Source: Malacoraja senta
Lineage: Eukaryota
Assembly (NCBI GenBank): GCA_038087875.1
Contig: CM075994.1
Location: 8,248,001-8,312,000 of the forward strand
DNA length: 64,000 bases
Reading direction: 5' to 3'
Of this stretch, positions 18,037 to 63,842 are shown piece by piece (position 1 is the stretch's first letter; each line of letters opens with the position of its first letter). The translations under genes and the position numbers were made by a program. The notes under the pieces were generated by a model, which had not been told where the DNA came from, ran no database searches, and was given only the letters and a program-made list of their open reading frames with translations.

Positions 18037-19619
18037 GTGCGTATTACCTCACCCAGCTGCAACTAAGTGTATCGTGCCCCATGAAATGTAAACACTGGAA
18101 TTTAGAAGGATGAGAGGAGAGCTTATCGAAACATAGAAGATTATTGATGGATTGGACATCCTAGAGGCAGGAAACATGTTCCAGAACCAGGGGCCACAGT
18201 TTAAGAATAAGGGGTCGGCCATTTAGAACGGAGACGAGGAAAAACGTTTTCACCCAGAGAGTTGTGAATCTGTGAAATTCTCGGCCTCAGAAGGCAGTGG
18301 AGGCCGATTCTCTGGATGCTTTCAAGAGAGAGTTAGAGCTGTTAAAGACAGTAGAGTTGTGGGATATGGGGAGGGCAGGAACGGGGTACTGAATGTGGAT
18401 GATCAGCCATGATCACAGTGAATGGCAGTGCTGGCTCGAAGGGCTGAATAGCCTACTCCTGCACCTATTGTCTATTGTCTATTGAAATGTTCATTCATAA
18501 AATCATAAGTTCATAAATTCGGAAGTTCTGAGATGCACAATAAAGAACTATCCGCTCCCGTCAGGCAGATGGTATAGAAGCTTCACAAGTTCACATCATA
18601 GAAGCAAAATTAGGCCATTCGGCCCATCGTCTGCCATTCAATCATGGCTGATCTATCTCTCCCTCCCAACCCCATTCTCCTGCCTTCTCCCCATAACCTC
18701 TGACACCGTACTGATCAAGAATCTATCTCTGCCTTAAAAATATCCACTGACTTGTGGCCTCCACAGCCGTCTGTGGCAATGAATCCTGCAGATTCACCAT
18801 CCCCTGACTAAATATATTCCTCTTCATCTTTCTAAAGGAACGTCCTTTTATTCTGAGGCTATGACGTGTAGACAGTCACAGGTTTGTCTAGGAATCATGT
18901 TGTGGGCCGAAGGGCCTGTGCCTGCACTGTGCACAATTCTACAAAACTTAAGTTGATGGAAAATCTCAATGAAAATGGAATAGAAAGGAACTGCAGATGC
19001 CAGTCTATACCAAAGATAGGCCCAAAGTGCTGGAGTAACTCAGAGGGTCAGGCCGCATTTCTGGATAACATAGAACTTTTTAGACATTTTTTTTAGTTTA
19101 GAAAATGATTTTTGGGAAACTAAAATGGCGATCCATTTCCTACAGATATGCTGCCGGAGTTATTCCAGCACTCTGTGTCTCTCTTTAAAAATCGCAAACA
19201 CTCCATCAGCACTGAGTTCAGTTTAGTTTAGTTTACATTTCCCGTCCACAATTCGCTGCAATCAAGCCATCCACAGTGTACAGATACACGATAAATGGAA
19301 TAACGTTTGTTGTCAGCTAAAGATAGTCCGACGGTCTCCAATGAGGTAGATGGGTGGTCAGGACCGCTCTCTAATTGGTGGTAGGATGGTTCACCTGCCT
19401 GATAACAGCTGGGAAGAAACTGTCCCTGAATCTGGAGGTGTGCGTTTTCACACCTGTGCCTCTTGCCCGATGGGAGAGGGGAAAAGAGAGATTGATCGGG
19501 GTGCGAATGGTCCTTAATTATGCTGCTGGTCTTGCCGAGGCAACGTCAGGTATAAATGGAGTCAATGAAAGGGAGGTTGGTTTGCGTGATGGTCTGGGCT
19601 GCGTCCACAATTCACAATT

Positions 19620-21555
19620 CACTGCAATGACATTGACATGTCGCTAGTTAAGATGGTCATTGAGGGGATCTCCAAACCTTTAACATTCATCTGTAATTTA
19701 TCCTTCCAGACCGGTACTTTTCCAATTCAAATGAAAATAGCAAAAATAATACCAATATACAAAACAGGGAACAAGCATCATTTTACAAACTATAGACCTG
19801 TTTCCTTACTCCCACAATTTTCCAAAATATTAGAAAAAATGTTTAATAATAGACTAGACAAATTTGTAGAAAATAATAAATTATTAACAGAAAGTCAATA
19901 TGGATTCAGAACAAATAGATCAACATCACTTGCAATACTAGAATTAATTGAAGACATCACAAACGCCATTGATAAGAAATTATATGCAGCTGGGATATTC
20001 ATTGACATAAAAAAAGCATTTGATACAATTAATCATGATATTTTATTTAAAAAAATGGAGAGGTATGGAATTAGAGGAATAGTACTGGACTGGATTAAAA
20101 GCTACTTAAGTAACAGGCAACAGTTTGTAAATCTGGGTAGTCATAATTCTACATGTTTGGACATTGTGTGTGGTGTACCACAGGGGTCAGTGCTGGGCCC
20201 AAAATTATTTATCATGTACATAAATGATATTTGTAATGTGTCCAATGTCTTGAGGCTGGTTTTGTTTGCAGATGATACAACTTTTTTTTGTTCTGGGGAA
20301 AATTTAAAAAGGCTATTGGATAAAATAATAAAAGAAATGGGTAAATTGAAAATATGGTTTGATAGTAATAAAATTTCATTAAATCTGAGTAAAACTAAAA
20401 TAATGTTATTTGGTAATTGTAGAATAAGTCCCCTAGTAAGTATAAAGATAAATGGGGTGGAAGTTGAAAGAGTGCATGAAAATAAATTTCTTGGGGTTAT
20501 AATTGACGATAAAATAAGCTGGAAATCACATATTAAACATGTAAAATTAAAATTATCAAAAAGTATCTCTGTATTATACAAAGCCAAGCAAGCTCTGGAT
20601 TACAAATCACTCCGTATTCTTTATTGTACATTAATTTTACCCTACTTAAATTATTGTACAGAAGTCTGGGGAAATAATTATAAAAATTCGATACACTCAT
20701 TAACCATGATGCAAAAAAGAGCAATTCGTATTATCCATAATGCTAAGTATCTGGGTCATACGAATCCATTATTTTTAGAGTCAAAATTATTAAAATTAGA
20801 AGATTTGGTCACATTCAAAACAGCTCAGATAATGTTCAGGGCCAAAAATAAAAATTTACCTGGAAACATTCAAAAATTATTTAACGAGCGTGTGGGGGGT
20901 TACAATTTAAGAGGAATATTTAACTTTAAGAAACAAAAAGTCCGTACGACTAGAAAAACCTTTTGTATTTCGGTTTGTGTAGGAGTGTGGAATAAATTGA
21001 ACGGCGAATTGAAGCAATGCACAAACATGAATCATTTTAAAATGATATATAAAAAAATAATGCTCAAGGGGTACAGGGATGGAGGGGATGGTTGACAAGT
21101 GGGGGTTGATGTTTATCTTGTTTACAATCGTTGATGTTTATCTTGTTACTATTGTTGATGTTTATCTTGTTTACTATTGTTCACTGATGTTGGGTACTTC
21201 AAATATGAAGATTGTATGTACATAATAGTTGTATGTATATATGTGTCTGTATGTATTATGGGAAATTGCCTAGGGCAGTACTATTATTAGTAAGGAATTG
21301 ATTTTTAAATACGATAGAAGTGTTGGGGAAAAGGGGTGAGATTTAATAAGTTATTCTTCTTCTCCTTTTCGAGCTTGTACAGACTCTGAGTTGGACATTG
21401 GAACCTTGATTTTGTTCTTCTCATTTGTAAATGTTGATTGCAATGTTCAATTGTTTGATAATTTCGATTTTGTTAATATCAATGTCTTTAATGTCTTTAC
21501 TTGTTCGGAATAAATAAATAAAAATAAAAAAATAAAAAAATAAAAATAAATAAAT
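19620..21555 (+). mobile_element. 5'-truncated CR1/L2-group (Crack/Daphne-like) LINE with 3' UTR and (AAAT)-type tail
   Basis: RT ORF 19638-21095, 3' UTR with short tandem repeats, A-rich tail at about 21509-21555. Confidence 0.85.
19638..21095 (+). CDS. Non-LTR retrotransposon reverse transcriptase, 485 aa uninterrupted, endonuclease missing
   Basis: NYRPVSLL, QYGFR, FIDIKKAFD, GVPQGSVLGP, FADD and FLG motifs. Confidence 0.92.
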   Translation: MSLVKMVIEGISKPLTFICNLSFQTGTFPIQMKIAKIIPIYKTGNKHHFTNYRPVSLLPQFSKILEKMFNNRLDKFVENNKLLTESQYGFRTNRSTSLAILELIEDITNAIDKKLYAAGIFIDIKKAFDTINHDILFKKMERYGIRGIVLDWIKSYLSNRQQFVNLGSHNSTCLDIVCGVPQGSVLGPKLFIMYINDICNVSNVLRLVLFADDTTFFCSGENLKRLLDKIIKEMGKLKIWFDSNKISLNLSKTKIMLFGNCRISPLVSIKINGVEVERVHENKFLGVIIDDKISWKSHIKHVKLKLSKSISVLYKAKQALDYKSLRILYCTLILPYLNYCTEVWGNNYKNSIHSLTMMQKRAIRIIHNAKYLGHTNPLFLESKLLKLEDLVTFKTAQIMFRAKNKNLPGNIQKLFNERVGGYNLRGIFNFKKQKVRTTRKTFCISVCVGVWNKLNGELKQCTNMNHFKMIYKKIMLKGYRDGGDG

Positions 21556-22072
21556 GAACCCCTCCATAATGTACAGATACAGGATAAAGGGAATAACGTT
21601 TAGTACAAGATAAAGTCCAATGAAAGATAGTCCGAGGTTCTCCATTGAGGTAGATGGGAGGTCAGGACTGCTCTCTAGTTGTGGTAGGATGGTTCAGTTT
21701 GTTGGGAGAAGGATAGTGAGAGAATGTTCACCCAGAGAGTTGTGAATCTGTGGAATTCTCTGCCGCAGAAGGCAGTGGAGGCCAATTCACTGGATGTTTT
21801 CAAGAGAGATTTAGGTTTAGCTCTCAGGGCTAACGGAATCAAGGGATATGGGGAGAAAGCAGGAACGGGGTACTGATTTTGTAGTGATGAGCCATGATCA
21901 TATAAAATGGCGGTGCTGGCTCGAAGGGCCACCTATTTTCTCTGCTTCTATGAGAAGACGGAGTGAAACTGGTTCTGCTGGCGGCCTTGCTGAGGCAGCG
22001 TGAGGTGTATCTGGAGATCCTGGCGACTCGACTAGAAGCTTTGCTGACGTCCGCTGTGGGTTTATGTCGCAG

Positions 22073-22216
22073 GTCCGGGTAACTTATCCTGATGGGTCCC
22101 CTGCTACCAACGTCCCGGTCCGGCTAGAGGGATACGACAGTTTCAAAACAAAAGGGAATGGAATGGTTTTGTTATCAATGTCACCACCATCTGACACAGA
22201 GGCATTTGACATCAAG
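22073..22216 (+). CDS. c4: Complement C4-like, exon H: VRVTYPDGSPATNVPVRLEGYDSFKTKGNGMVLLSMSPPSDTEAFDIK
   Basis: cgcag| ... |gtaaga; 144 nt, phase 0 to 0. VTxPDGSPA..VPV is the MG4 motif. Confidence 0.92.
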
Positions 22217-22399
22217 GTAAGAAAATAATGTGGGCAATAGTGGTCAAAAATGCTTTCAGCACATTGGCCTTCATCAGAGTATTGAGACGAGAAGTTGGGA
22301 GGTCATGTTGAAGTTGTATAAGACGTTGGTGAGTCCGCATTTAGATTATTGTGTTAAATTCTGGCCACTGTGTTAAGTGAAAGATGTTGTCCCACCAGC

Positions 22400-26485: not shown

Positions 26486-26680
26486 ATCATCAGCAAGGGC
26501 AAGGTTGTGAAGATGGGCTACGTGCACAAGTCGGAGCTGACCAAACTCACTGTGCCACTGAGCTTGGAGATGGTCCCTTCCTTCCGCCTCATCCTCTACT
26601 ATTTCATCAGTGTCGGCGGCAAGACTGAGATGGTCGCAAACTCCGCCTGGATTGATGTGAAAGATGTCTGCGAGGCGGAG
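26486..26680 (+). CDS. c4: Complement C4-like, exon J: IISKGKVVKMGYVHKSELTKLTVPLSLEMVPSFRLILYYFISVGGKTEMVANSAWIDVKDVCEAE
   Basis: cgtag| ... |gtacga; 195 nt, phase 0 to 0. PSFRL..YY and VANS.W.DV.D.C motifs. Confidence 0.93.
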
Positions 26681-27178
26681 GTACGATTAGAAGCATAAAA
26701 TTGTCCCAATGTGTGTGTGTAGGTGGGTGTGTAGGGTAGTGTGAGTGTGCGGGGATCGCTGGTCGGCACAGACTCGGCGGGCCGAACGGCCTGGTTCCTT
26801 GCTGTATCTTCACATAGAAACATAGAAAACAGGTGCAAGAGTCGGCCATTCGTCCCTTCGAGCCAGCACTGCCATTGAGTATGATCATGGCTGATCATCC
26901 ACAATCAGTACCCCATTCCTGCTTTCTCCCCATACCCATTGATTCCGTTCGCCCTAAGAGCTAAATCTAACTCTCTCTTGAAAACATCCAGTGAATTGGC
27001 CTCCACTGCCTTCTGTGGCAGAGAATTCCACAGATTCACAACTCTCTGGGTGAAAAAGTTTTTCCTCATCTCAGTCCTAAATGGCCTTACTGTGACCCTG
27101 GTTCTGGACCCCCCAACATCGGGAACATTTTTCCTGCATCTAACCTGTCTAATCCCTTAAGAATTTTATGTTTCTATA

Positions 27179-28092
27179 AAGATGGCGGATGTGCAGGAGT
27201 GGGCACCGTCTGTGTATGGCAGCCTGCCCGCAGTCCGTCTCTTCACCTTTTTTTATTTTAATTTCTTAGTCCTGTCAAAAAAAATTTAGTTGGAGGTCTT
27301 TTATGTGGTGGGTTGGGGAGGGGAAGGGGGAAACTTTATTTCCCAGTCCCCTACCTGGTCGGAGAGGCGGCTTGCCTCCGAGCTGCTTCTTCGCCCCCTT
27401 CAAGACTGGAGCTGCTTCTTCGCCTACCATCAAGACTGGAGCGGCGTTTTCCTGTCGGGGCTGGCCGGGACTACATCTTCAGCGGCGTTACAGCGCTGGG
27501 ACACCATCAGGGAGCGGGCGATGCCTTACCGGGTCGCTGGGCGGTAAGCTACGGAGTGCTGTGGCTGCAACATCAAGGAGCTGTGGCTGCGGGCGTCCGG
27601 CTGCAGGCGGCGCTGGATTTGGAGCGTCGCGGAGCCTGGGATCGAGTTCGCTGGGGTCGGAGCTCCAATCCGACGCGGCCTGAGGACTTCGGGTGCCCCG
27701 GTCTCCGGTCTCCGGGAAGGAGGCGGCCGCTCCAGACTTTCCAAGCCGCTGAGGAATGTTTCACCCGACGCCGGAGTTCCATCTTCACGGCAAGAGGGCC
27801 CTGAAAATCATCGGATTGGCTGCAAGGCCACAAATGGGCCCCGACCTCGGGTGTTTCACAGAGGAAGAGGACTTAACTTTCTGGTGCCTTTCCCCACAGT
27901 GGAAAATTTTGATTCTGCTGTGGACGTCTGTGTTGAACTCTATAATATGTTGTGTCCATTTTTTCTTTTTTAACCTTTTTCTATGGTTTGTATGGAAACT
28001 TATTATAGATTTTATGTAAAGCGCTTTGGTGTCAATGTGAGTTGACTTAAAACATGCTATATAAATAAAACTTACTTACTTACTTACTTACT
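27179..28092 (+). mobile_element. Non-autonomous retroposon with GC-rich body and L2-like 3' end with (CTTA)n tail. Related bodies at about 32640-33440(-) and 45700-46095(+)
   Basis: Starts aagatggcgg; ends gtaaagcgcttt...ctatataaataaaa(ctta)n; shared cagtccctacctggtcggaga block. Confidence 0.6.
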
Positions 28093-29769
28093 AAAATCCA
28101 TCTGTATTTCAAGAAGCATGTCGTTTGGAATTGCAGATGCTGGTTTACACCGAAGATAGACACAAAGTGCTGGAGTATCTCAACAGGTCAGGCAGCATCT
28201 CTGGAGATAGATACAAAGTGCTTGAGTAACTCAGCGGGTCAGGCAGCATCTCTGGAGAGAAGGGATGGGTGACGTTTTGGGAAGAGACCCTTCTTCAGAC
28301 TGAGGGTCAGGGGATACATAGATATGGATGGGTAAGATGTGAAAAACAAACATCAAATGGGATGGAGAGCAAATGTAGAATAGATCATTGTTAGCTAGGG
28401 GAAGGTGATAACGAGGTATACAAAGAAAAAATGTAATCTGGACCTCCAGCATTTTGTGTCTTTAACTTAGAGGTGAAGTGATCTTATGTGCAGGAAGGAA
28501 CTGCAGATGCCGGTTTAAACCAATGATAGACACAAAAAACTGCAGTAACTCAGCAGGACAGGCAGCATCTCTGGAGAGAAGGAATGGGTTACGTTTCGGG
28601 TCGGGACCCTTCTTCAGACTGGTTAGGGATAAGGGAAACAAGAGATATAGATGGTGATGTAGAGAGATAAAGTACAATGAATGAAAGATATGCAACAAAG
28701 TAACGATGATAAAGGAAACAGGCCATTGTTAGCTGTTTGTTGGGTGAAAACGAGACGCTGGTGTGACTTGGGTGGGGGAGGGATGGAGAGTGAGGGAATG
28801 CCGGGGTGATCTTATACCTGTAATAGTCCTTCTAGCAATGACCAGAACAAGAATAAACAGCATTCTGATTTTCTCAGTCATACAGCAGGAAACAGGCCCT
28901 TCGGCTCAACTTGCCCGTGCCGACCAAAATGTCCCATCTCCACTAGTCCTCCCTACTTGTGTTTGGTTCATACCAACAGGGCCTGTTTCCATGTTGTAAG
29001 ACTCTGTGAGTTGGCCAAAGGGCCTGTTCCAGAAACGTCGCCCATTCCTTCTCTCCAGAGATGCTGCCTGTCCTGCTGAGTTACTCCAGCATTTTATATC
29101 TACATTCGATTTTTACCAGCATCTGCAGTTCTTTCTAACTGTTTTCAACCCTTATGGTTCGGTGACTCTATAAAAGTGTGTTAATAGAAATAATATTCAA
29201 AAATCCCAAAATGCCTGCCCACCACTATCAAAGTCCAGAACATTCAGGATTATTGAAATATTACTGTATGTAAAATACTGTATTAGGGTGGCATGGTGGC
29301 GCAGCTGTAGAGTTGCTGCCTCACAGCGCCAGAGACCCGGGTTCGATCCTGTCTACGGGTGCTGTCTGTATGGAGTTTGTACGTTCTCCCCGTGACCTGC
29401 GTGGGCTTTCTCCGAGATCTTCGGATTCCTCCCGCGCTCCAATGATGTACAGGCTTGCAGGTTAATTGGCTTGGTGTAAATGTAAAAATTGTCCCTGGTG
29501 TGTGTATGATAGTGTTAGTGTGCAGGGATCGCTGGTCGGTGCGGACTTGGCAGGCAGATAGGGCCTGTTTCCGCGCTGTATCTCTACTTAGAAACATAGA
29601 AACATAGAAAATAGGTGCAGGAATAGGCCATTCGGCCCTTCGAGCCAGCCATTCAATATGAATAGATCGGTTAGACGCACAGAGTCTCTTGCCCAGAGTA
29701 GGGGACTCGAGGACCAGAGGACATAGGTTTAATGTGAGGGCGGGAAAGATTTAATAGGAATCTGAGGGG

Positions 29770-30548
29770 TGTAGCGGCACCAAACGTGGTGAATAAAGTT
29801 GAGACATCAGGCCGGTTCAAAGAGTCGTTTATTCAGTGGTGACACGTTAGGTTGGTGCTAACTATAATAACAATGTTGCTGTAGCTGAGCGAGGTTGTTC
29901 ACTCAGGCTCAGCTACCGGTTGAATACCTTAAGGTCTCGAGGTGAGATGACCTTAAGTACCAGGACACTCCCTCTAGCCCATGACGTCACGTGCCCGCCC
30001 TCGTACTTCCTGACGAGGGTTCGAGCATAAGTGGCCCGTGTATAGGCTGACGCCACAGGACGCCCCCCAGAACCGGAGGAAGGAATAGCATGGTCGAGGG
30101 CGGCTACTGCATCGGTCCCCTCGCACCCCTCGGTACCTCGGGATCGCCCACGCAGAGCGTTACTGCGCCCGTGGGCCCTCCGTCCCGACCCACGCCCGGG
30201 GTGTCCCAGACCCACATGCAGTAGCCGCCCTCGACCATGCTATTTCTTCCTCCGGTTCTGGGGGGGGGTCCTGTGGCATCAGCCTATACACGGGCCACTT
30301 ATGCTTGAACCCTCGTCAGGAAGTACGAGGGCGGGCACGTGACGTCATGGGCTAGAGGGAGTGTCCTGGTACTTAAGATCATCTCACCTCGTATTCAACC
30401 GGTAGCTGAGCCCGAGTGAACAACCTCGCTCAGCTACAGCAACACTGTTATTTTAGTTAGCACCAACCTAACGTGTCACCACTGAATAAACGCCTCTTTG
30501 AACCGGCCTGACGTCTCACCTTTATTCACCACTTTTGGTGCCGCTACA
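29770..30548. mobile_element. Fold-back element made of two inverted Gypsy-type PPT+LTR ends
   Basis: Arms 29770-30112 and 30216-30548 are reverse complements. Each holds a TG...CA LTR (29770-30057 on -, 30272-30548 on +) preceded by a G-run PPT. Near-perfect 4-bp TSD gggg/tggg inside a CR1 fragment. Confidence 0.85.
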
Positions 30549-30843
30549 TGGGTAACTTTTTCACACAAAGGGTGGTGGGTGTATGGAACAAGCTGCCAGA
30601 GGAGGTCGTTGAGGCTGGGACTATCCCAACGTTTAAGAAGCAGTTAGACAGGTACATGGATAGGACAGGTTTGGAGGGATATGCACCAAATGTAGGCAGG
30701 TGGGAGTACTGTAGCTGGGACATGTTGGCCGGTGTGGGCAAGTTGGGCGAATGGCCTGTTTCCACACTGTATCACTCTGACTCTATTCCAGAAAAAGGTA
30801 AAACATCAATGCTGAGATTCTGCAATTTTTCTGTCCATTGTAG

Positions 30844-30993
30844 ATTGAGATCAACGTTGAGCGGAAGGACTATCTTCCCGATAGTAGCACAGATATAACG
30901 ATTCAAATGGGAGATGCAGGACAAGCATCTCTCGCGATGGTGGACAGCGCAATCTATATCCTCAACAGCAAGAATAAACTTACAACCAAACAG
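30844..30993 (+). CDS. c4: Complement C4-like, exon K: IEINVERKDYLPDSSTDITIQMGDAGQASLAMVDSAIYILNSKNKLTTKQ
   Basis: tgtag| ... |gtacgt; 150 nt, phase 0 to 0. LA.VD.AIY.LN.KNKLT motif (MG6 to linker). Confidence 0.92.
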
Positions 30994-32264
30994 GTACGTT
31001 TAGTTTAGTTTAGTTTATTGTCACGTGTACCGAGGTACAGTGAAAAGCTTTTGTTGCGTGCTAACCAGTCAGCGGAAAGACCATACATGATTACAATTGA
31101 GTCATTTACGGTGTACAGGTTCATGGTAAAGGGAGTAACCTTTAGTGCATGGCAAAGTCCGATCAAAGATAGTCCGAGGGTCTCTAATGAGGTAGATAGT
31201 ACAGCTGGGAAGATTCTGTCCCTGAATCTGGAGGTGTGCGTTTTCACACTTCTCGATGGGAGAGGGTAGAAGAGGGAGTGGCCGGGGTGAGACTGGTCCT
31301 TGATTATGCTGCTGGCCTTGCCGAGGCAGCGTGAGGTGTAGATGGAGTCAATGGAAGGAAGGTCGGTTTGCGTGATGGTCTGAGCTGCGTTCACAATTCG
31401 CTGCAATTTCTTGCGGTCTTGGACGGAGCTGTTCCCAAACCGTGCTGTGATGCATCCCGATAAAATGCTTTCTATGGCGCGCGATTCGCCCATATCACTC
31501 TCAACGTTCCGGTCCATCAATCTGCTCAAGTGTCTTTTAAATGTTGTCGTAGTCCCAACCTCAACTACCTCCTCCGGCAGGTCAACCATACACCCATCTC
31601 CCTCATTGTGGGAAAGTTACCCTTCAGGTTCCTATTAAATCTTTCCCCCTTCACCTTAAACCTATGTCCTCTAGTCCTTGATTCCTCCACCTTAGGTAAA
31701 AGACTATCTATTCCTCTCATGATTTTATACACCTCTATAAGATCACCCCTCAGCCTCCTGCGCTCCAAGGAATAAAGTCCTAGCCTGCCCAACCTTTTAC
31801 ACGATAGTTCAGGCCCTCAAGCCCTGGTTGGATGGACATGGGGATGAGCGGACCAAGTTTTTTTAAACAAGGGGTGGTGGGTGCCTGGAACGCGCTTCCA
31901 GGGGTGGTGGTGGCAGATAAGATAGTGGCGTTTAACAGGCTTTCAGATGGATATGGAGGGAAATGAATCAAGTGCAGGCAAATATCAATAGACAATAGGT
32001 GCAGGAGTAGGCCATTCGGCCCTTCGAACCATTCACCGTGATCAAGACTGATCATCCACAATCAGTACCCCGTTCCTGCCTTCTTCCCATATTCCTTGAC
32101 TCCGCTATCTTTAAGAGCTCTATCTAATTCTCTCTTGAAAGCATCCAGAAAACCGGCCTCCACTGCCCTCTGAAGCAGAGAATTCCACAGATTCACAACT
32201 CACTGGATGAAAACATTTTTCCTCATCTCAGTTCTAAATGGCTTACCCCTTATTCTTAAACTGT

Positions 32265-35200
32265 CATAGTGGCAGCATGCTGTAAAGGTTGCAAATTCGT
32301 TTGCTCCCTTAACTTTTAACTTTCACTTACCACTCTTTCAATGTTACTTGTGACTACTTGACTTCAAGGCACGGTCTAACTTTTCATAAAGTGTTGATAA
32401 CATTTTTACACTCCTTAATCGTGAAAAGGATGGAGACAAGAAGGAAAGGAGGCTCCCCAAGGAAGGAACAGGGGAAAGCCACAGCCACAGCCACAGCATC
32501 TGACTCTAGTATCATAGAAGCAATATTGAAAATGAACGATGAATTGAAAAATGAAATGAAAACAAGATTTGGCAGTTTGGAAGAATTGGTGAAAGGAGTT
32601 TCGACCAAATTGAAGGAAGTTCAAGGAAAGCTGTATGTTACAATCCAATCCAATCCAACTTTATTTGTTAAGCACTTTAAAACAACCAATGTTGACCAGA
32701 GTGCTGTACAGAAAAATAAATAAAAAATAAAAAAAGGTAGAATAAAAAAGACACGACACACTATTAGAGATTCAACACGAACACCCCCCCACAGCAGAGT
32801 CGACACTCTCCACTGTGAGGGAAAGGCACCACAATGTCCAGTCCTCCTCCTCTAGTCCACCCGAGATCGGGGCCAGTTTGAGGGCTCCGCAGCAAGTCGC
32901 CGCAACGGCAGTCCGATGTTGTAGGCCCACCCGCCGGGAAGCTGGAACACCGGCATCGGGTGGAAAGTCCTCAGCAGCTTGGAAGTGTCTGGAGCGGCCG
33001 CTCCCTCCCCGGAGACTGCGACGCCCGTAGTCCTCAGGCCGCGCCGGTTGGAGCTTAGACTCCGACTCCGCGATGTTCTCGACCCAGCGCCGCCCGCCCT
33101 CGGCGGGACGCCCTCAGACCGCAGACCACAAACCGCAGACCACAAACCGCAGACCGCGGCTGCTTGATGTTGGTGGTTGGCGGTCACAGCACTCCGGAGC
33201 GGCGACCCGGCAAGGCATCGCCCGCTCCGTGTTGGTGTCCCAGCGCTGTGCCGCCGAAGCTGTGGTCCCGGCAGGAACGCCGCTCCAGCCCGATGGAAGG
33301 CCGCATGGGGAGAGCGAAGATGCGATTTGGAGGAAAACCGCATCTCCGACCAGGTAGGACTGGGGTTGAAACAGTTTCCCCACCCCCCACCCCCCACAGA
33401 GAAAGAATAGACCTCCAAATAAAAATGATAGACAAAAAAAAGCTTGTAACTATAATTAAAAAAAAACAAGATGAACTTTGTGAACAAAAGGAACAAATTG
33501 ATAACTTGCGAACCCTGGGCCAGGAGAGAGATTTGAAGATTGAAAAACTGGAACGGAGAATGAATGAAAATACTCGAGCACTTCAGCAATATAAGACTAA
33601 AAATATGGACCTAGAAAACAGAAGCCGTCGATTGAATTTACGAATTGTTGGTTTGCCGGAAGGTCAAGAAGGAGATAATGTTATAAAATATGCTTTTAAA
33701 ATGATAAACGAGACTTTCAACATTGAGCACAATGAAAATCTTCCGTTTTTGGATAACGCACACAGGATTGGGAAGAAATCTGGTAATAAACCGAGACACT
33801 TGATTATTCGGTTTCACTTTTTGCAAATGAAGGAGAATATTCTCCAGGCAGCAAAAATGTTGGGCGTGGTTGAATATGAAGGATGCAAGTTTCGGTTTGT
33901 TCCTGATTATAGTTACAAGCTTTTGGAAATAAGAAAGTCCTTTCATAATGTAATGTCTGATCTGTTGAAGAAAAAGCTACGCCCAGCCTTACTTTATCCA
34001 GCTGACCTGTGTATACGACTTTTCAATGGTAACACTCGAATTTTTAACAATCCTCAAGACGCTTCCAGCTTTTTGGAGAGTTACGAGGGTGAAGGGGAGT
34101 AATTGATAGCTGATTAAGTTATAATTGGAGATTTACTGTTCCTATTTTGACAACATATCGTTTGGTAATGATTAAGAATTTAACTGGACGAGTTATTTTT
34201 CTTTTATATATACTAATTTTTAAGAACTTCTTTGTTAATTTGTGTTCCCCTGTCGTTAGACAAATTAAGGGAACGCAGTTCTTGTTTTTCATATTTTGAC
34301 CTTGGATAATAATATGTAGCACTCGCTCTTCGGTTCCATTGCCAGCATGTATTTTTTTTCTCTCTTTCAAACGATAACAATGAACGTGTTATGGCTATGG
34401 AGTGGAAAAATATGATCTCTATATCGGGTGTTGTTGCTAGGAGAGATGGGGGTTGGGACGGGATTGGGTAGCTTACTGACTGTCTATTGGTCAGTTTGGG
34501 GCTTTACATGGGGGGGAGGGGTCTCTTGTTTCTTATTTAGTGTTCTTCATTTGTGCAAAATCTGAACTACAAAAATGTCTGAAATGTCGTCACTTCTGGC
34601 TCCGTCCGCCCTAGATTTTTCTTCTTCCAGTATCATGAACTATTAGGCTTTAAGAAATTAACCCTTTACATCCCAAATGATTTTTACAAGCAATATGGAT
34701 AACGTTATTAACTTCCTTTCATGGAATGTGAATGGCTTGAACCATCCCATTAAGAGGATTTTTTTTTTAATCTCTTCGCAGACTAAATGCTCAGATTATC
34801 TTTGTTCAGGAAACTCATGTAAGGCAAGATGACAATCAACAATATTTCAAGTTTTGGAGAGGACAGCGGTTTCATTCAAATTCACAGGCTAAGGTGAAAG
34901 GAGTCTCTATTTTTATTGACTTCTCAATTCCGTTTGTTCATTTAAGCGACTGAGTCCTGAAAAGCGCTATATAAATAAAATCTATTATTATTATTATTAT
35001 GAAACAATTTCTGATCCATATGGCAGATTTTTGGTGATTACTGGTGTTCTTAATAAGCAAAAAGTTGCTATGGTGAATGTTTACACACCAAATATTGATC
35101 ACCCTGAGTTTTTTTAAACAGTTAATTGCATCCTTTCCTAATTTAAATGAACACTTTTTAATAATGGGTGGAGATTTCAACTGCTGTCTGAACCCCTTGA

Positions 35201-36748
35201 TTGACAGATCTACATCTGATCATGTGCTTCCAAATAAATCAGCTAATTTTATTCATTCCTTTTAATTGACTGGAATGTTAGAAGTTTGGAGATTCTTACA
35301 CCCAAATGACAAAGAATTTTCTTTTTTCTCTCATGTATATCATAGTTATTCTAGGATAATTTGTCGTCTTTTTGGAAACATATGGTGCAAAACAGGTGTA
35401 AAAGCTAATCCGTGACTGCGGATGGTCAAGATTATAAATGATCTCCTTACTTCTATTTTCTTTTCTTCTCTTCTCTTCTTTTATTCTCTTTCTTCTATTT
35501 TCTATGTAATAAAATAAGAAAAAAAAAAAAAAAAAAAGATTGACTACTTTATAATAGATTCTCGGCTAGTTTCATTGGTCACTGCATGTGAATATGATGC
35601 AATTGCTATTTCTGATCACGCACCATTGAAACTATCAATCAAACTACCTGATTCCTGATTTAGTGCTAAACAATGGCGATTTAATGCTACTTTGCTTCAA
35701 GACAAACTTTATTAATTTTATTAAAGATCAGATTGCTTTTTACTTCATGACAAACTCTACTGAAGAAATATCCAATGGTGTAGTTTGGGATGCTTTTAAG
35801 GCATATATTCGTGGACAAATTATTTCATACTCCGTGGGATTAAAAAAACAAACTCAAAAAGAAATACGTACATTGGCTGACGAGATTAAAGAAATTGATA
35901 AAAAAATATTCAAAAGCTCCTAGTTTAGAGCTCTATAAGAATAGAGTTGAACTTCAATTGAGATATGATTTGTTATTAGTATCACCGATTAAGAACCAGC
36001 TACTTAAAACCAAAAGTCAATTTTATGTACATGGCGAAAAATCTGATAAATTACTCGCTAATCAGTTGAAAGCGTTGTCGGCCAAGCATCAGATTACTTA
36101 AGTGAGTAAATGGGATGGTACACTAACTGCAGACCATGATGAAATTAATAAATCCTTTCAGGAATTTTATACCTCCCTATACCAATCAGAAAATCCTACT
36201 GATTCCAATATAATGCATGAGTTTTTAAAGAAACTGAACTTACCAAATTTACCATACAATGAGTCTCTGTTGTTAGATGAACCCATCACGGAAGATGAAA
36301 TACAGAAAGCAATTATTTCAATGAATTTTGGTAAAGCTCCCGGTTTAGATGGGTTTACAGTAGAACTTTAAAAGTATTTTTCACATTTATTGTCTCCCTG
36401 CCTATGCAAGGTATTTAAAGAAGCCTTTTTAAGGAATAGATTACCACAATCTTTTTATGAAGCATCTATTTCTTTAATCCTTAAAAAAGATAAAGACCCT
36501 ACTGAAGTGACATCATATAGACCTATATCACTGTTAAATGTAGATTTCAAAATTCTCCAAAATATTAGCTATGAGATTGGAAAATATTTTACTGCAAATT
36601 ATCTCTGATGATCCGACAGGTTTTATTAAAAATCGTTACTCATACTTTAACGTTAGGAGATTAATGAATATTGTATATACAGCGTCAAATAAAATCCCAG
36701 AATGTGTCATTTCACTTAATGCCGAGAAGGCGTTTGATGGAGTAGAAT
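32265..36748 (+). mobile_element. L1 retrotransposon 5' portion (ORF1, ORF2 endonuclease and start of RT), decayed, with nested insertions
   Basis: ORF1 DLENRSRRLNLRIVGLPEG...LYPA. ORF2 starts at ATG 34695 with SWNVNGL, GGDFN, SDH, SYRPISLLN and AEKAFD. Stops and frameshifts throughout. Confidence 0.9.
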
Positions 36749-39700
36749 TGGAAGATTAAACGCGAACTTACCAGTTTGAAGTTTGATCTTTATTTTATGA
36801 GGAGTTACGATGAGGGATTACGTGAAGAAGCACGCCAGCCTGCATGCGCGTCAACCTTCAAAGCAGCGGTGTGAAATCGCAGAAACTGTTGTTGAACTGA
36901 TTATAGGAAGATTCGAGAAACTAGAACTACCACATGACCTTTATGAGAAGAGGGTTGGGAGCGGAGGGCACGTAACTCCTCATAATATAAAGATCAAACT
37001 TCAAACTGGTAAGTTCTCGTTTAATCTTCCTATTTTACTTCGGAGTCACGCAAAGTAGTGTTAACACAATGTTAATATCCCATACTTCCGTGTACCTGGG
37101 CTTGGGAGAATTTGCGTTAAAGATATCCTTCATAAATCTGGATATCAGAGGGTGAGACCCGACAGAGTGGGTCCCGATCCCTGCTGCAAATATGATGAGA
37201 AGGCACTTTTGGCACAGTTAATGGCACTATAACTTAATTTTTTTGTCAAAGAACCATTTGAAAATGAACTCCAAGACGTCAGTTATCCGTGCCATATTAT
37301 ATGTTATATTAGCATTTAAACAAAACACTTCCCATCTCCGGATGAGGTAATGTACTGCTTTTTGGTGCTATCCCTCCAAGCTGCAGTTATCATGACCATG
37401 GTTTGGTCTGACAACCCGAGCCCCAGGAACGGTCTTCTTATAGTCTGCAAGTCAATAAATTGATTCTATCATGCAGAGGGTGGCTTCCCGAGTCACGGGA
37501 TGAACCAGCAAATTTTTGTGTTTAGAAATAACCATATAAGGTTCTATTATCATTCCCAACATCAGCGGGAACCTGAAGCGGAATCTTGCTGGATTTTTTG
37601 CAAGACCCGACTGATGAGGCAAAATGGAGGAAAGGCATAAAAGAACATTCCTCCTCAGTGTAGCGAGAATGCATTCATCGCCACTTCCCCTGGGTGTGGC
37701 TCCCATGCCACATATTTTTGCAACTGGTGATTGAGCCTAGATGCAAACAAATCGATATTCGGTGGTCCATACCGAGCAACAATGTCATTAAATACTTTGT
37801 GATCCAACATCCATTCTGTGTTATCATTAAATTTAAGTGATGATACACCAGTGCCAAATGAGGTTAGCTAAACTATCACAGGATACTGACTTGATTCCAC
37901 CCATGTGATTAATATATGCCACCGCCGTAGTGTTATCAACTTGTAGATGAACATGCAGATTATGCATATTCCCACAATAAGCCTTTAACCCATAGAATGC
38001 CCCTAGTATCTCCAGGTAGTTGATACCATATAACTGAAGAATTGGTAACTCATGCACATCCCATTTGCCTCTGCAACTAGAGATGGTATTAGTAGTTCCC
38101 CATCCTTGAGCACTAGCATCAGTTTGTAATATAACTGAAGGTTTACTGACCAAATGTAACTGGAGCAATGTTGAATATTGGTCGTCCACCATTGTAATTC
38201 TGATAGCTTCAGCTGGTAATAGCATAGGTCTGTTAAAATGACCTAAAAGGTACTTGAGAGCTTGCTCCTTTGCACATTGTAAATTCTGATAATGCAAAGG
38301 CCTAAATTGCGCAGCAGGAAAAACAGCCACTATATTGCCAATTACACTAGCCACCTGGCAAATAGAAGGCTGCTTCATAACAACAAGGTTGTTACAGGCT
38401 TCTATTAATTATAATCTCTTGCCGCAGGGCAGATTCACAGGCATATTAATAGAGTAAAAGGTAAATCCAAAATAATCAATAACTCTAGGTGGTATCAACT
38501 TAGATTTTTAACTGGATAAATGAGAAACCCCAATTTCTCAAATATGAGTTTCGTCGCTGAAACAGCTAATTTAGCCAAATACAGTGTTGTAGGATATCAT
38601 CCAGTTAGGCCATAACACTGTGTTTTTGAACTCTGAGCAGCCCAAGCACCGGCTTTAGTAATTTAGTAAATAACCTGGGAGCTGAAGTTAGCCCATTAGG
38701 CAACGCTTTAAACTGCCATAGTTGCCTCATCCAGCTAAATTTCAAATATCTCCGGTGATCCCTGAATGGGAACTGAATAGGATGCATCTTTGAGATCGAT
38801 GCATGCCATAAAGCATCCTTTGGGAATCAGTTGTCAGGCAGTAACAAAGTTTTCCATTTTAAAATGTCTATACTGCACATGTGAGTTAAGTTGAGTTAAA
38901 TCAAGGATGATCCGACATCCTCCATCTTACTTTTCTGGAGGCGCAGGGGTGTTATCGCCGAAACGGTGAAGCTTTGCTCATCGTGGGTGCTTTAATTAAC
39001 CCAACAGCTTTTGCTTCCTCTCGATTACCCCTGTTGTGTGTAATTTATGAATTTCTGCTTGTATGTCCAAACCTTCTTGTTTGGAATGAATAAAGGCGAC
39101 TTGGTGTATGTTGTATGGGTGGCAATGAGTTAAGAGGAAATTCAATTTGGAACCCTTGTATATTGAGCAGTATAAACTGGTCTGATGTTATCCACCTCCA
39201 TTTGTGCAAAAACAAGTGTAATCTACCACCAATTTGTAACTGATCCACACATCCCATGTTCCGGAAAGAACCAGACCCATCTACCTCCATGGTTACCGGT
39301 GGTCTTATGGTAGGCCCCAAAGGCCCCTGATACGGGTTCTATTTCCGTCCTCGAGGTTTGGAGGATAGAAGTTCGGGTGTGCGGATTGCGCATTCTCCAT
39401 GAAGGCCGGCTTGGCTCTTGGCCTAAAAAAGACCTCTGCCCAGAGAAATCAGCTTTCGAGCTACCACCAGCTTCAGCGAACCACTTACTGCTAATGGAGG
39501 CGTAGGGGTGTTGTCGCCGAAATGGTGAAGCCTTGCTCATCGTTGGTGCCTTGATTAGCCCGAGAGCTTTTGGTTCCTCATCCAGGTTTTCAACCTGTTT
39601 GGGTACATCTTCCCCGAAGAGAAGATTCGGCGGCTGGACATTGCTGGCCTTACAAATTTGGGTTTTAAGGCAGGTCTGATGGCGTTCTTCCGAAAGCAGT

Positions 39701-40731
39701 TCATTTCGAAGTGTGCATTGCACATCAATGCCAGGGCATCCTGCTGGACGTCCGATAAGGGCCCACCATCCAAAGATCTGGCAAATGCCTTGATGCCTGA
39801 AGCCAGCAATTTTAAATTCTTTGGAGTTTCATTTCTTGGGCTTTGATGCCCCATTTTTCTCCAATGTACCCCCAGATAGAGCTGTTCACTGCCGGCACTT
39901 TCAGGGATGCACAATTTTCAGGTGTATGGTATTTTGCAGCCGTTTCAACCATCACCTCTTCCTGTAATTGATGCGACGTGAGGTAGTTTATGCTGGAAGC
40001 CAGCTCTTGCAGCAGCTCCCCTGTTTGCGAGGGTATCACAAGCCTTGATGCCATGGCAGGCAATTCTTGAACCTCACGCATGTCATGCATTCCAGTATGT
40101 TCCACGGACATGCCTCCGAATTCGGAGTCAGTCATATACTGACCCCGTACACTCCCCTCCTCAGAGTGGGAGATATTAAGCAGCCCTGGACCAGGCGCTG
40201 CCACAGGCTCACAAGGAGACCTGCGCTGATATGTCCCCATTTCACGGAGCATATGATGATGGAGCATCCTTTCCATAAGGTGCTCCATCAGGGATAAATG
40301 CCCGAAGACGCCATCCACGTTTGTAGGAGGAGAATCCTCCTGGCCTGACTCACCTGTACACAGGCCTCTCAGACTTGGGTTGCCAAAGTCTGAAGTCGCT
40401 GACCACACTGTCAGTGACTCAGACGGCGAAACCGATGGCCGCCGGCTACCTGCACTCCCGCGGTCCTCCGTAGCCACTTTCCCTGCGGCCCGTCTGGATT
40501 TTCGCCCTGGATTCATTATTCTTAGTAATTGGAAATTTTGTAAAGAGAAATTTCGCACAAAAAATCCGACCTCGGTATAAGTTTATAAACTTACCTACAG
40601 GATTTTAAAACTTACCGCTGGAGGAGCGACGCTCCTCCCAGCCAGTCGTACGCAATGCGTTAGACGTATTGACGCGCATGCGGGCTGGCGGGCTTCTTCA
40701 AGTAGTCACTCACGTGACTTCGAAGTAAAAT
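36749..40731 (-). mobile_element. DIRS1-like retrotransposon with both termini and ICR, internally deleted
   Basis: gag-like ORFs, RT (LPNGLTSAPRLFTK), DIRS RNase H (INYLE...DNTTAVAYIN), DLFAS methyltransferase-like segment and YR N-terminus (HPLISRFMKDIFN). ICR 36971-37050 is complementary to both ends. Confidence 0.92.
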
Positions 40732-55471: not shown

Positions 55472-55960
55472 TTACTTTGGAAAACTAGACCATTACTTGG
55501 AACTAGGGAGAAAGGCAATTAAGCAACTGTTCCAAGTGGTTGTGAGAAAACATTGGAAGGACTAGCAAGATGGAAGGGATTGGAATGGAAATCCAAAGCC
55601 CAGATGCAAAGCTGAGGCGTTTACATTCCTTATACCAACAGACAACTTGCTGATTGATACAATTTGCAATAATTACCCAAAGGATTTCGCACTTAACTCT
55701 TAAAATTAACAGGAAGTATCGTGTTGATTGGCTCTGATATTATTTCAAGTCATGTTGTATCCTTTTCCTCTTTGTATAATTCAGAAAGGCAGTTTTGCAC
55801 TTAACAATCAATTTAATTGTCAGAGAATACTCCCACATATACCATCACACTGGATTAATATAATTTGACAATATGACAACTATGCTTCTACAAATAAACT
55901 GCAATTCTGAGACTGTTCAGCCTTTTGCAACCCACCCTGGCTCCTCTGGTAAAGGGCATG

Positions 55961-58900
55961 AACCCTGTGGTTGGAAGCCACGCGCACGTGACTCTGGGAG
56001 GGGTCGGGTTTTCGCCCGGTTTCAGAGCTCTGCCCACCAGTCGTTCCAGGACCACCGTTGTGGTCGGTTGTGTTTTGTGACCAGTGTTATCGGTGAATGA
56101 GGAATGTGAATACATTATTTTCCAACCTACCTATTGTCATAATTCATCAGCTAAATTGGTGACCCTGTCGAGTCTAACCGTAGTTAGACCTAAGATCATG
56201 CAGGACAATTATTTTCCCGCCGGCAAGGCCGGCGCTCAACAGGACTCTGTCAGCCTTCGACTGCCTCATTTTTGGCCTGATCAGCCACAGGTTTGGTTTG
56301 CCCACCTGCACAGCTCCGTCGCGGACGAGACACGTTATTTCCACGTGGTGGGGGCCCAGCCGCAGGAGTCGACCTCATGTTTGCTGCCTTACCTGAGGGA
56401 CCCGCCAGCGACGGCCAAGTACGATGGCCTCAAGGCCCTGTTGCTGCATACCTTCGGGCTCAGCCATCGAGACCATGCAGCGAAGATTCTACACATGGAC
56501 GGTATGGGCAATCGGAGGCTCTCCAGCTTGATGGCCAGGATGTTGGCCTTGATGGATGGGCATCGGCCGTGCTTGCTTTTCGAGCAAGCCTTCTTAGAGC
56601 AGATGCCCGACGACGTACGATTAATGCTCGATGGAGCTGATTTCAGCGACCCCCAGCAGCTCGCTGAGAGGGCCGACGAACTATGGACCACGAGACGGCA
56701 GGAGGTCTGCGCCAGCACCCGTCTGGTTGCACCAGTTAGATTGCTTTTGAGGAAGCTACGCGAGGAAGGCGAGGAACGGGAGTGACATTCAAACGTACGG
56801 TACGCGGATTCTTAAACTAACCTTCGACTCCCACCCGTACAGGTGGAAGTTTATCGTTGTTAACGTCGCCCAAGCAATCTTGGGGGCTGATTTCCTGCGC
56901 GCGTTCTCCCTCCTAGTCGACATGCATGGCGGTCATATGGTCCCGTTGTCAGACCTCCGCCCCGATGAACCGCGCAACTCGCCTCCGCCCAAGCAGCAAC
57001 CCGACGACATCGCAGAGGTCGAGGAACGTCTGTTATCCGAGTTCCCGGAGCTACTGACGCCCCGTTTTGACGGGGCCACGCCTCGTCATCGTGTGGTGCA
57101 CCACATTCCCACCGAAGGCCCATTGGTGCACGCTCGCGCATGCCGCCTACCACCGGACAGGCTGCGCATTGCCCGCGATGAATTCCAGTTGATGGAAGAC
57201 ATGGGCATTGTGCGGCGGTCTGATAGCACTTGGGCTTCCCCACTCCTTATGGTTCCCAAAGCATCTGTGGGTTGGAGGCCTTGCGGTGATTACAGGCGGC
57301 TTAACGCGGTAACCACGGTGGACCGGCACCCCATATTCAGGATTTTTCGGCGCACCTCGAGGACGCTACCTTCTATTCGAAGGTCAACCTGGTTCGGGGG
57401 TTATAACCAGATCCCCGTCCACCCCGACGACGTCCCCAAGACAGCCTCGCTCGGCCTGTTCGAATGGCTCCGAATGCCATTCGCCCTAAAGAACGCTGCT
57501 CAGGCATTCTAGCGACTTATGGATCAGGTCGGGCGGGGTTTGCCTTTCATCTTCATTTATTTAGACAATATCCTGGTGACCAGCCGTTCGCAGGTGGAAC
57601 ACGTTATTCACCTTCGCCTTTTGTTCGAGCGATTACGCGAGCACGGTTTGGTGATTAACCCTGCGAACTGCCAGTTCGGCTTGCGCTCCCTTTCCTTCTT
57701 AGGGCATCGGGTTACCCCTCGTGGTGCCGAGCCACTGCCTGAGAAGGTCGACGCCATTCGCCAGTTCCCTAGGCCGCTCACTGTCAAGGGTCTACAGGAG
57801 TTTATTGGGATGGGAAATTTTTACCACCGGTTCATGCCTTCAGCCGCCGCTGTCATGCGCCCACTATCAAATCAAATCAAATCAAAAACTTTATTTGCCA
57901 TTTGTGCTTACACACATAGGAACTCTTGTGCGGTTGTTCAGAGAGTCAAGTCAAGTCAAGTTAAAAAGACACACAGAAAGACACATAATCTATAAACTAT
58001 AAACACATATACTATGATATGTTATGAGGTGGGTCAGGACATCAGTTCATTTTGTTTTGGCCAAGAGTCTCACTGTGGCAGGGAAGAAGCTCTTGAAAAA
58101 GCGTGTTCTGTTTGTGGCGATGCTGTCCGCTCGTCTGTGCCTGAGGTTGTATGTGCAGTTTTTGTGTTTGAGCAGGGAGTCAGCTGGATGTAGTGTGTCT
58201 CTGATGATTCTCTCTGCTCTTTTTTGACAGCGCTGTGTGTAGATTGTTTCCATGGAGGGAAGTTCCGTTCTGATAATCCTCTCTGCAGTCTTTATGACTC
58301 TTTGCGGAGCCTTCCTCTCTGTCTGTGTGGTGTTTCCATACCACACTGTAATATTCCAGTGCCTCGCGGGTAAGCCGTGGAACCTGGTATGGTCGGACGA
58401 GGCCGACACGGCGTTCGAAGGTGCTAAAGCCGCGCTGGCTAACGCCACCATGCTAGTGCACCCGAGGGCGTCTGCGCTCATGGTCGACTTCGGATGTCGC
58501 TGTGGGTGAAGTCCTGGAGCAGCGGGTCAGTGACCGCTGGCAGCCGCTGCCGTTTTTCAGCCGGCAGCTTCGGCCTCCGGAGTGTAAGTACAGCGCATTC
58601 GACACGGAACTCCTCGCGCTCTACCTAGCGATCAGGCATTTCCGTTACTTCCTCGAGGGCCGAGATTTCACTGCTTTCACGGACCACAATGCTCACTTTT
58701 GCATTGGGCAAAATCGCCGATCCGTGGTCTGCCAGGCAGCAGTGGCACCTCACCTACAATTCCGAGTTCACGTCTGACATTCGGCATGTAGCGGGGAAGC
58801 TTAACGTCATGGCCAACGCGTTGTCTCGTCTGGCCTTCCCGTCGGCTCCGGCTCTAGACCTGGGAGTCGACTACGCTGAGCTGGCAGCGGCCCAAATGGC

Positions 58901-60504
58901 CGTTGCCAGCATGGCGGGTTATCACACAGCTGAATCGGGCCTTGAGCTAGCCGAGGTGCCTTGAGGGGCGGCTGGGGTCAAGGTCCTCTGAGATATCTCC
59001 ATGGGTAGAGCCCGTCCGGTTATTCCAGTCAGTTGGAGACGGTGAGTTTTTGACACTGTCTACAGTTTGGCCCACCCGTCCAGTCTGCCCTGGTAGCGTC
59101 CAAATTCGTTTGGCACGGGCTGCAGAAGCAGGTGGCCGCCTGGGCCCATGCTTGCATCCCGTGCCAGACCTCCAAGGTTCAGCGACATGTACGGCCACCC
59201 ATGCAGGATTTCGCTGTGCCTGATGGCAGGTTCCTGCATATTCATGTAGATCTTGTCCGTCCCTTACCATGTTCGCGTGGTGCCACGCACCTGCTTACTA
59301 TAGTGGACAGTTCACTAGGAGGCCCGAGGCTATCCCATTATCGGATACCTCCATGGAGGCTTGCACTCAGGCTATCGTGTCCAACTGGATAACTCGTTTC
59401 GGGGTCCCATCCGACATCACCACATACCGTGGGACACAGTTTACCTCGTCTCTGTGGTCTGGCTTAGCGCAGCTTTACGGCGCCCACCTACACCAGATGA
59501 CCGCTTATCACCCAGAGGCAAATGGGTAAGTTGAGCGGTTCCATAGACACCTTAAGTCGGCGTTGAAGGCCCGGCTTACCGGCCCCGATTGGGTTGACCA
59601 GTTGCCCTGGGTTCTCCTGGGCGTCAGAACAACACCTAAGGAGGACCTGGACGTCTCCTCGGCTGAGCTCGTCTATGGCTCGGCTTTACGTGTACCAGGG
59701 GATTTCCTGCCCGCCGCCCGTGGTCAGGAGGTTTCGGCTTTGGCGGTGCTAGCGTAGCATTGTGAGCGGGTGCGCGCGTTAGTCCCCGTCCCCACTTCCA
59801 GGCATGGGTCGGCCTCTGTGCGTGTGCCGGTGTCATTACAGAATTGTGCTTATGTTTTCCTTCGCAGGGACGCTCACCGCTCGCCGCTGCAGCGGGTTTA
59901 TGAGGGGCCGTACAGGGTGCTGGGGACTGAAGTCTCCACGTTCACGTTGGACGTGGGCGGCCAGGAGGAGTTCGTCTCCGTCGGCCGCCTTAAGCCCGCA
60001 CACGTGGACGAGGACAGCACTGTGCTTGTGGCTACACCAAAGCGCAGAGGTCGTCCGACGGCCGTTCTGCTGTCCCCTGACCCTGTTGTTCCCGGCCCTG
60101 TTTCGCTGGTCCCCGTTGTTACGCCCGCCCCTTGTTCGCGTTTTTCGTGTCCCTCTGGTTATGTTCTGCCGGTCCCCGTAGTTACGCCCGTCCCATGTTT
60201 GAGGACTTCGCGTTCAGGCCATACCGTTCGGCTCCCGGTGCATTTCCGTACCTCGGTTTCTGGGGGGGGGGCATGTAGCGGAATCTATTGGTGCTCGTCG
60301 GTATCAAACCCTGCGGTCGGAAGCTGCGCGCACGTGACTCTGCGAAGGGTCGGGTTTTCGCGTGGTTTCTGAGCTCTGCCCGCCAGTTGTTCCAGGACCA
60401 CCGTTGTGGTCAATTGTGTTTTGTGACCAGTGTTATTATCGGTGAATGAGGATTGTGAATAAATTATTTTCCAACCTACCGATTGTCATAATTCATCCGC
60501 AAAA
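55961..60504 (+). mobile_element. Ty3/Gypsy LTR retrotransposon, degenerate; 5' LTR truncated
   Basis: LTRs at about 55961-56155 and 60274-60504; PBS tggtgaccc; gag (FWPDQPQVWF); RT (WASPL, GDYRRLN, YLD); RNase H; integrase (HIHVD, YHPEANG); PPT tctggggggggg. Confidence 0.93.
57867..58350 (-). mobile_element. Rex1/Babar-like LINE 3' fragment inserted in Gypsy pol
   Basis: WYGN...QRVIKTAERII...HPA; splits the pol reading MRPL|FQCL. Confidence 0.75.
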
Positions 60505-63555: not shown

Positions 63556-63842
63556 TATAGCGACACCGGACGTGTTGAATAAAGGTGAGACGTCAGGTCG
63601 GTTCAAAGAGTCGTTTATTCAGTGCTGACACGTTAGGTTGGTGCCGACTATCATAACAGTGTTGCTGTAGCTGAGCGAGGTTGTTCCCTCGGGCTCAGCT
63701 ACCGGTTGAACACCTAAGGTCTCGAGGTGAGATGACCTTAAGTACCAGGACACTCCCTCTAGCCCATGACGTCACGTGCCCGCCCTCGTACTTCCTGACG
63801 AGGGTTCGAGCATAAGTGGCCCGTGTATAGGCTGCCGCCACA
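63556..63842 (-). mobile_element. Solo LTR of the same family as the 29770-30548 arms
   Basis: Colinear with 29770-30057; perfect 4-bp TSD acat (63552-63555 and 63843-63846). Confidence 0.9.

Follow-up and report, generated by a model that had tools for sequence, protein, structure and literature searches.

The locus and its host gene

The window, a 64-kb stretch of DNA analysed as a whole, contains a 779-bp insertion with two LTRs in inverted orientation, located in an intron of what looks like a C3-like gene. The features at the locus, and a related solo LTR further along the window, are the following:

26681-30843, + strand: host intron of the C3-like gene (GT...AG, phase 0), preceded by an exon that ends at 26680 and followed by one that starts at 30844
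29672-29769, + strand: left part of the interrupted LINE fragment
29766-29769: left copy of the target-site duplication, 4 bp
29770-30057, - strand: left LTR, inverted, 288 bp, U5 outward
30058-30098, - strand: inverted copy of the G-run (PPT-like) and of the internal DNA just upstream of it
30099-30112, + strand: left partner of a 14-bp inverted repeat, apparently part of the parent element and the pivot of the fold-back
30113-30215, + strand: 103-bp loop, apparently the parent's ordinary 3' internal DNA
30216-30229, + strand: right partner of the 14-bp inverted repeat
30230-30271, + strand: internal tail of the parent and its G-run (PPT-like, 30260-30268)
30272-30548, + strand: right LTR, 277 bp, with an 11-bp deletion, in the native orientation of a 3' LTR
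30549-30552: right copy of the target-site duplication, with one mismatch
30549-30785, + strand: right part of the interrupted LINE fragment
63556-63842, - strand: solo LTR of this family, flanked by an identical 4-bp duplication

A Pfam search of 150 plus-strand open frames gave six matches, two of them above the cut-off (MG4 and A2M_BRD), both upstream of the unit. When the two neighbouring exons were compared with solved structures, the best relatives were C3 chains, followed by cobra venom factor and, for one of the exons, C5; no C4 chain was present among the 23 and 14 PDB matches of the two exons. The host gene thus looks C3-like rather than C4, the identity given by an earlier reading of the sequence alone (the sequence-only reading). 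The 50-aa exon at 30844-30993, which begins 296 nt after the end of the unit, had no PDB match and was assigned by its position, its phase and its neighbouring exons. Other exons of the host gene lie at 26486-26680 and 22004-22225, all on the + strand.

Anatomy of the inverted unit

The insertion spans 29770-30548. Its arms (29770-30112 and 30216-30548) are inverted copies of each other around a loop that is 75% GC, so that the two arms of about 340 bp and the 103-bp spacer of the sequence-only reading were recovered. The content ascribed to the arms was likewise found in both: a TG...CA LTR, a G-run and some 50 bp of internal sequence. Over 332 aligned columns, the arms have 12 substitutions between them (3.6%; seven transitions and five transversions), and there is one 11-bp gap and one 1-bp gap; the longest perfect run that they share is 71 bp. 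Each LTR contains an internal palindromic stretch, at 29881-29916 and at 30402-30437, that is similar when read on either strand.

On the host sense strand, an AATAAA is found at 30485, some 60 nt inside the outer end, and the CRE/E-box motifs are close to the G-run. With these motifs in the roles that we take them to have, the LTRs can be oriented, and the outer ends of the unit are therefore U5, as had been proposed. Both U5 ends abut the host LINE sequence directly, the G-run is internal to both LTRs, and the two ends of the LTR form an imperfect inverted repeat of about 10 bp. The unit has two PPT-like G-runs and no PBS, and both LTR promoters face outward, none inward. Because of the missing PBS and the two outward promoters, the unit should be a dead end for retrotransposition. 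Rfam gave no match over 29600-30800, and Pfam gave none in the three plus-strand frames over the loop.

The solo LTR at 63556-63842, flanked by the perfect 4-bp duplication that had already been noted, has TA in place of its outer TG and is 94% and 90% identical to the left and right LTRs of the unit. In a three-way alignment of the two arms with the solo LTR, 13 sites pair the arms against the solo LTR, against six and four for the other groupings. The two LTRs of the unit thus group as sisters, and by this alignment both arms appear to derive from one template. There is no second copy of the inverted unit within the 64-kb window.

The target site

The LINE interrupted by the unit continues on both sides in the same orientation. 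Five other copies of this LINE in the window span both flanks, and in four of them the flanks overlap by exactly 4 bp, while the fifth lacks one G. From these copies, the duplication is 4 bp long with one mismatch, in agreement with the sequence-only reading, which had called the LINE a CR1 sequence and had described it as split with a gggg/tggg duplication. The target itself is a G-run.

A second, inverted copy of the interrupted LINE is found at 31491-31705 (- strand), just downstream of the exon at 30844-30993. It is 73-83% like 29683-29770 and 30550-30683 (+ strand), and this exon is therefore also flanked by inverted repeats.

Sequence runs from related organisms

Four runs from three related organisms (two from organism A and one each from B and D) were compared with 30082-31011, a stretch containing one full arm. 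They were taken from 23 listed runs, none of them an RNA run, of which the best contains 52% of the sampled words. Over the exon, the relatives' listed contigs differ from the window at 12 of 127, 14 of 226 and 9 of 148 letters, and run X2 has no coverage there. These differences indicate that none of the compared runs appears to be from the host itself. In all four runs, loose contig ends at 30550 carry the left-flank sequence.

Contigs of run X1 are stacked over the exon at 30844, with bin depths of 41-169 against 34.5 for one contig, and may represent several paralogues or alleles. In organism B, the match of the lone contig over the intron-exon stretch (run X3) breaks off at 30786, on the border of the LINE fragment, and 30 unmatched letters follow. 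The LINE, and hence the insertion within it, may be absent from organism B, or this single contig may come from a paralogue.

The parent family

The parent LTR family is abundant in all four runs, with every loop and LTR bin covered. The summed depths of these bins range from thousands to hundreds of thousands, against 3-35 for a typical contig, and are not a copy number. At least six contigs (records 9-11 in X2 and 25-27 in X6) connect the loop with the right arm, and in two of these (records 26 and 27, X6) the match continues past the right-arm tail and the G-run into the LTR. By joining loop, right arm and LTR, these contigs indicate that the loop is the parent's ordinary 3' internal DNA, oriented as the right arm. 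The whole series of loop, right arm, G-run and LTR would accordingly be the normal contiguous 3' end of a high-copy LTR family. The spacer would then be no module of its own; it belongs to the 3' internal DNA of the parent.

The contigs also bear on the point where the inversion begins. Records 9 and 10, both from organism A, reach 14 bases into the left arm and end at 30099, with 22 and 18 unmatched letters, respectively. A joint on the same strand leads from 30250 back to 30099 over four other letters; its depth is 1550 in X1 and 242.5 in X2, compared to about 30-35 and 3-6 for a single contig in these runs. It appears that the parent in organism A contains a tandem unit of about 156 bp in its 3' internal region, starting with 30099-30112. 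Each of these tandem units has its own 14-bp inverted repeat.

The sequence 30099-30112 is the perfect reverse complement of 30216-30229. Since the left 14 bp are also parental, as judged in organism A from two records and one joint among the matches listed, the loop of the parent would already be framed by a 14-bp inverted repeat, on which the inversion appears to pivot exactly. At position 30222, in the right partner, almost the whole depth of X3 and X6 has a different letter, as does 21-39% of that of X2 and X1; many copies of the family therefore have an imperfect repeat.

Within 30099-30271, the longest perfect inverted repeat is 14 bp, and none longer than 11 bp occurred in 200 shuffles. 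In the predicted fold of the minus-strand DNA, the stem has pairing probabilities of 0.96-1.0 at 13 of the 14 pairs and 0.56 at the terminal pair. Among 46 stop positions tested, 30099 alone leaves every one of the final 8 nt paired at p ≥ 0.9; 30102 follows with 0.69. These folding controls use the window sequence, in which the stem is present by construction, and are relevant only because the repeat is parental.

The parent is probably a Ty3/Gypsy family, an assignment made from the termini and the G-run. A Gypsy-like element at about 55900-60505 was considered as the parent and rejected, as its LTRs are unrelated and its tail similarity is marginal. The sequence-only reading had likened the PPT of the unit to that of this Gypsy at 60259-60271; the tail G-run has some resemblance to the one at 60260-60271, which precedes an LTR, but its score of 42 is barely above the maximum of 41 in 300 shuffles. 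The loop-junction pattern had no exact match in viral contigs, and the LTR pattern had none in metagenome or viral contigs.

Origin of the unit

The unit is most likely a rare error of copying, unusually easy to read, and not a new mobile family; it probably goes back to a single aberrant cDNA whose priming site can be identified. Of the two origins suggested from the sequence alone, an aberrant reverse-transcription product with two U5 att ends is the better fit, and its pivot can now be located. The opening of the hairpin is an inferred step.

The account favored here, with moderate confidence, is that a nascent minus-strand cDNA primed itself at the 14-bp repeat and that the resulting DNA with two U5 ends was inserted by the integrase of the family. 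After the first strand transfer, the minus-strand DNA would copy U3, the PPT, the tail and the loop. RNase H would remove the RNA, allowing the 3' end of the minus strand to pair with the earlier copy of the repeat and to prime its own extension. The strand would then recopy the tail, PPT, U3, R and U5, producing a hairpin in which the left LTR (29770-30057) is the newly copied arm. A second primer of minus polarity, either strong-stop DNA or a tRNA on a co-packaged RNA, could open the hairpin and convert it into a linear palindrome carrying U5 at both ends, and integrase would use these tips for insertion. No precedent for this opening into a two-ended duplex was found in the literature searched.

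Self-priming of minus-strand DNA at a hairpin is known for HIV-1 in vitro, where the self-primed strong-stop products are described as dead ends, suppressed by nucleocapsid and undetected in endogenous reactions (PMC6088434). HIV-1 integrase in vitro prefers U5/U5 pairs for concerted integration and makes a normal duplication with them (PMC8742673). In the present unit, each end is a flush U5 tip, and the duplication is 4 bp long; its one mismatch counts against the cDNA model.

The main rival is a template switch in the chromosome after insertion. A normal full-length element would have inserted first. A strand undergoing replication or break repair would then have folded at the 14-bp repeat and made a second copy of the 3' end. 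With the short terminal inverted repeat of the LTR as a bridge, it would have returned at the outer edge of the 5' LTR, and all the DNA in between would have been lost. Such a strand could use the same pivot, the imperfect inverted repeats at the LTR termini would offer microhomology for its return, and the unexplained hairpin-opening step would not be required. Replication errors at short interrupted inverted repeats are also documented in yeast, where the process is called ODIRA (PMC4689423). However, two switches would be required, the second falling exactly on the first base of the 5' LTR with 8-9 of 10 matches, the duplication would have to stay intact, and the left tip reads U5, not U3. 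This course of events is considered unlikely. Two independent insertions in opposite orientation, followed by a deletion between them, would fit a family that covers all LTR and loop bins in four of four runs and has a solo copy in the same window. But the outer ends share a single duplication, the arms are sisters relative to the solo LTR (13 sites against 6 and 4), and the inner junction falls exactly on the parent's 14-bp repeat. Chance double insertion, highly improbable on these grounds, was rejected. An assembly artefact in the form of a fold-back chimeric read was also rejected as scarcely credible. None of the relatives' contigs examined spans the whole unit, the compared stretch having one full arm, but the arms differ by 12 substitutions and two gaps, and the LINE has one and the same orientation left and right of the unit, where a target duplication is also present.

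The other origin that had been suggested, a PBS-less, MITE-like family, can be weighed by depth. The bin 30082-30112 has 0.37, 0.17, 0.25 and 0.12 of the depth of the next bin in the four runs, which come from three relatives. The parent alone predicts a ratio of 14/31, or 0.45, while a dominant fold-back form would predict about the depth of the loop. Among the contigs listed for these runs, in which LINE matches dominated, none matches left of 30099, including the two family contigs that reach this position; a junction contig may be as short as 46 nt, and left-end overruns are uninformative. The depth argues against a large fold-back family in the three relatives, leaving room for a few copies. 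A propagating non-autonomous family, MITE-like or Ginger-like and moved as DNA or RNA by an integrase-type enzyme, would be consistent with the termini, which fit TGTNR with a 4-bp duplication, as in Ginger elements (PMC2836005), and the depth evidence covers only the relatives' runs and the contigs listed for them. Nevertheless, the depth of 30082-30112 never rises above the parent's 14-bp share, and the window has no second copy. The G-run target is also unlike the CCGG/CCGT of Ginger1 or the RTATAY of Ginger2 (PMC2836005). Propagation through RNA is unlikely, since there is no PBS and both promoters face outward. A mobile family of either kind is thus distinctly improbable, and the self-primed cDNA is retained as the preferred origin.

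Comparison with known systems

The unit departs from a canonical Ty3/Gypsy insertion in that its LTRs are inverted rather than direct and in that it does not have a single PBS and a single PPT. It agrees with one in its TG...CA ends and in its duplication, which is within the 4-6 bp of such elements, with one mismatch here and none at the solo LTR. TRIM and LARD elements have direct LTRs with a PBS and a PPT, and an identity with them was rejected because the LTRs of the unit are inverted. DIRS1-type retrotransposons have inverted LTRs, but they insert by a tyrosine recombinase without a target duplication and have no PPT. This identity was rejected because a 4-bp duplication and PPT-like runs are present.

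With Ty3/Gypsy insertions and defective proviruses, the unit shares TG...CA LTRs, a G-rich PPT, a 4-bp duplication and, on the account favored here, an origin in aberrant strand transfer or priming. Errors of reverse transcription give rise to defective HIV-1 proviruses, among them forms that contain inversions or whose LTRs are asymmetric (PMC9278108). Those described there have internal inversions and 3'-LTR deletions, unlike the form found here, which has inverted LTRs, U5 at both ends, two PPTs, no PBS and a length of only 779 bp. The proposed mechanism resembles HIV-1 self-priming in that the 3' end of nascent minus-strand DNA would fold on an internal inverted repeat and be extended. However, HIV-1 self-priming, as far as it is described in PMC6088434, precedes the first transfer and is a dead end, while here it would follow the copying of the PPT and the product would be inserted.

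Ginger1 and Ginger2 also have TGTNR termini in inverted repeats and a 4-bp duplication. The unit differs from them, as they are described in PMC2836005, in its target, in its lack of a transposase and in its arms of about 340 bp, compared to 40-270 bp in Ginger1. Bao et al. suggested that the TIRs of Ginger1 might derive from two oppositely oriented LTRs, and they left the path from LTR to TIR unclear (PMC2836005). Their route requires two insertions, whereas the unit described here would require a single fold-back.

Mu killer of maize is, like the present unit, an inverted duplication of one transposon end, with the same terminus twice, within a host transcription unit. Its source is a DNA transposon, and transcription running into it from a host gene yields a long hairpin that silences its own family (PMC3440606). 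The present unit has its origin in an LTR element; the likeness is one of layout only, and its hairpin is predicted. The unit shares with ODIRA an inversion junction centered on a pre-existing short interrupted inverted repeat. ODIRA is chromosomal, depends on an origin and integrates by homologous recombination (PMC4689423), while the unit has integrase-type ends. No description of a fold-back insertion with two U5 ends was found in the literature searched; Repbase, Dfam and most subscription journals lay outside this search.

Significance

What is new here is that the relatives' contigs place the loop, right arm, G-run and LTR in what appears to be the ordinary 3' end of the parent, and that the inversion appears to pivot on a parental 14-bp repeat. 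The unit would be a natural record, with a priming site readable to the base, suggesting that self-primed cDNA, usually regarded as a dead end, can be completed and enter the germ line by insertion through its two U5 ends. Taken as one dead copy, it is a curiosity, if one that is informative about mechanism. Should such products recur, they would provide a source of long dsRNA against an abundant family and a concrete mechanism by which LTRs become terminal inverted repeats, the step left unclear for Ginger1 (PMC2836005).

A bolder idea is that the 14-bp inverted repeat, which occurs in several of the tandem units, serves as a hotspot of self-priming from which the family repeatedly spawns independent fold-backs with two U5 ends. 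This would be a one-step route from an LTR retrotransposon to TIR-bounded, integrase-competent elements, and the intronic hairpins that it produced would be Mu killer-like silencers of their own family in a vertebrate. It is considered unlikely. If it were true, and if the loop were long enough to hold an integrase gene, it could explain the transition from LTR elements to Ginger1.

Possible effects on the host transcript

The RNA of the inverted unit has a predicted fold of -713 kcal/mol (z = -48, 20 shuffles), and the host pre-mRNA could form a stem of about 340 bp. The intronic hairpin about 300 nt before the exon, anticipated by the sequence-only reading, is thus upheld as a prediction, in a C3-like gene and not in C4. 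The likely residual effects of the unit, inferred from its sequence and predicted fold, would be this dsRNA stem in the host pre-mRNA and the poly(A) signal on the sense strand at 30485.

Neighboring elements

The decayed Gypsy-like element at about 55900-60505 (+ strand) is a separate element with unrelated LTRs and with matches to DUF7041 and RVT_1. It has an insertion of about 500 bp at about 57870-58360, and its 5' LTR looks truncated. Long open frames occur at 19590-21095 (+), 33059-34102 (+), 37833-38408 (-) and 39812-40582 (-), which we take to be pieces of LINE reverse transcriptase, L1 ORF1 and DIRS-type elements. The two minus-strand frames had no Pfam match, and weak Pfam matches to RVT_1 are found at 36372-36756.
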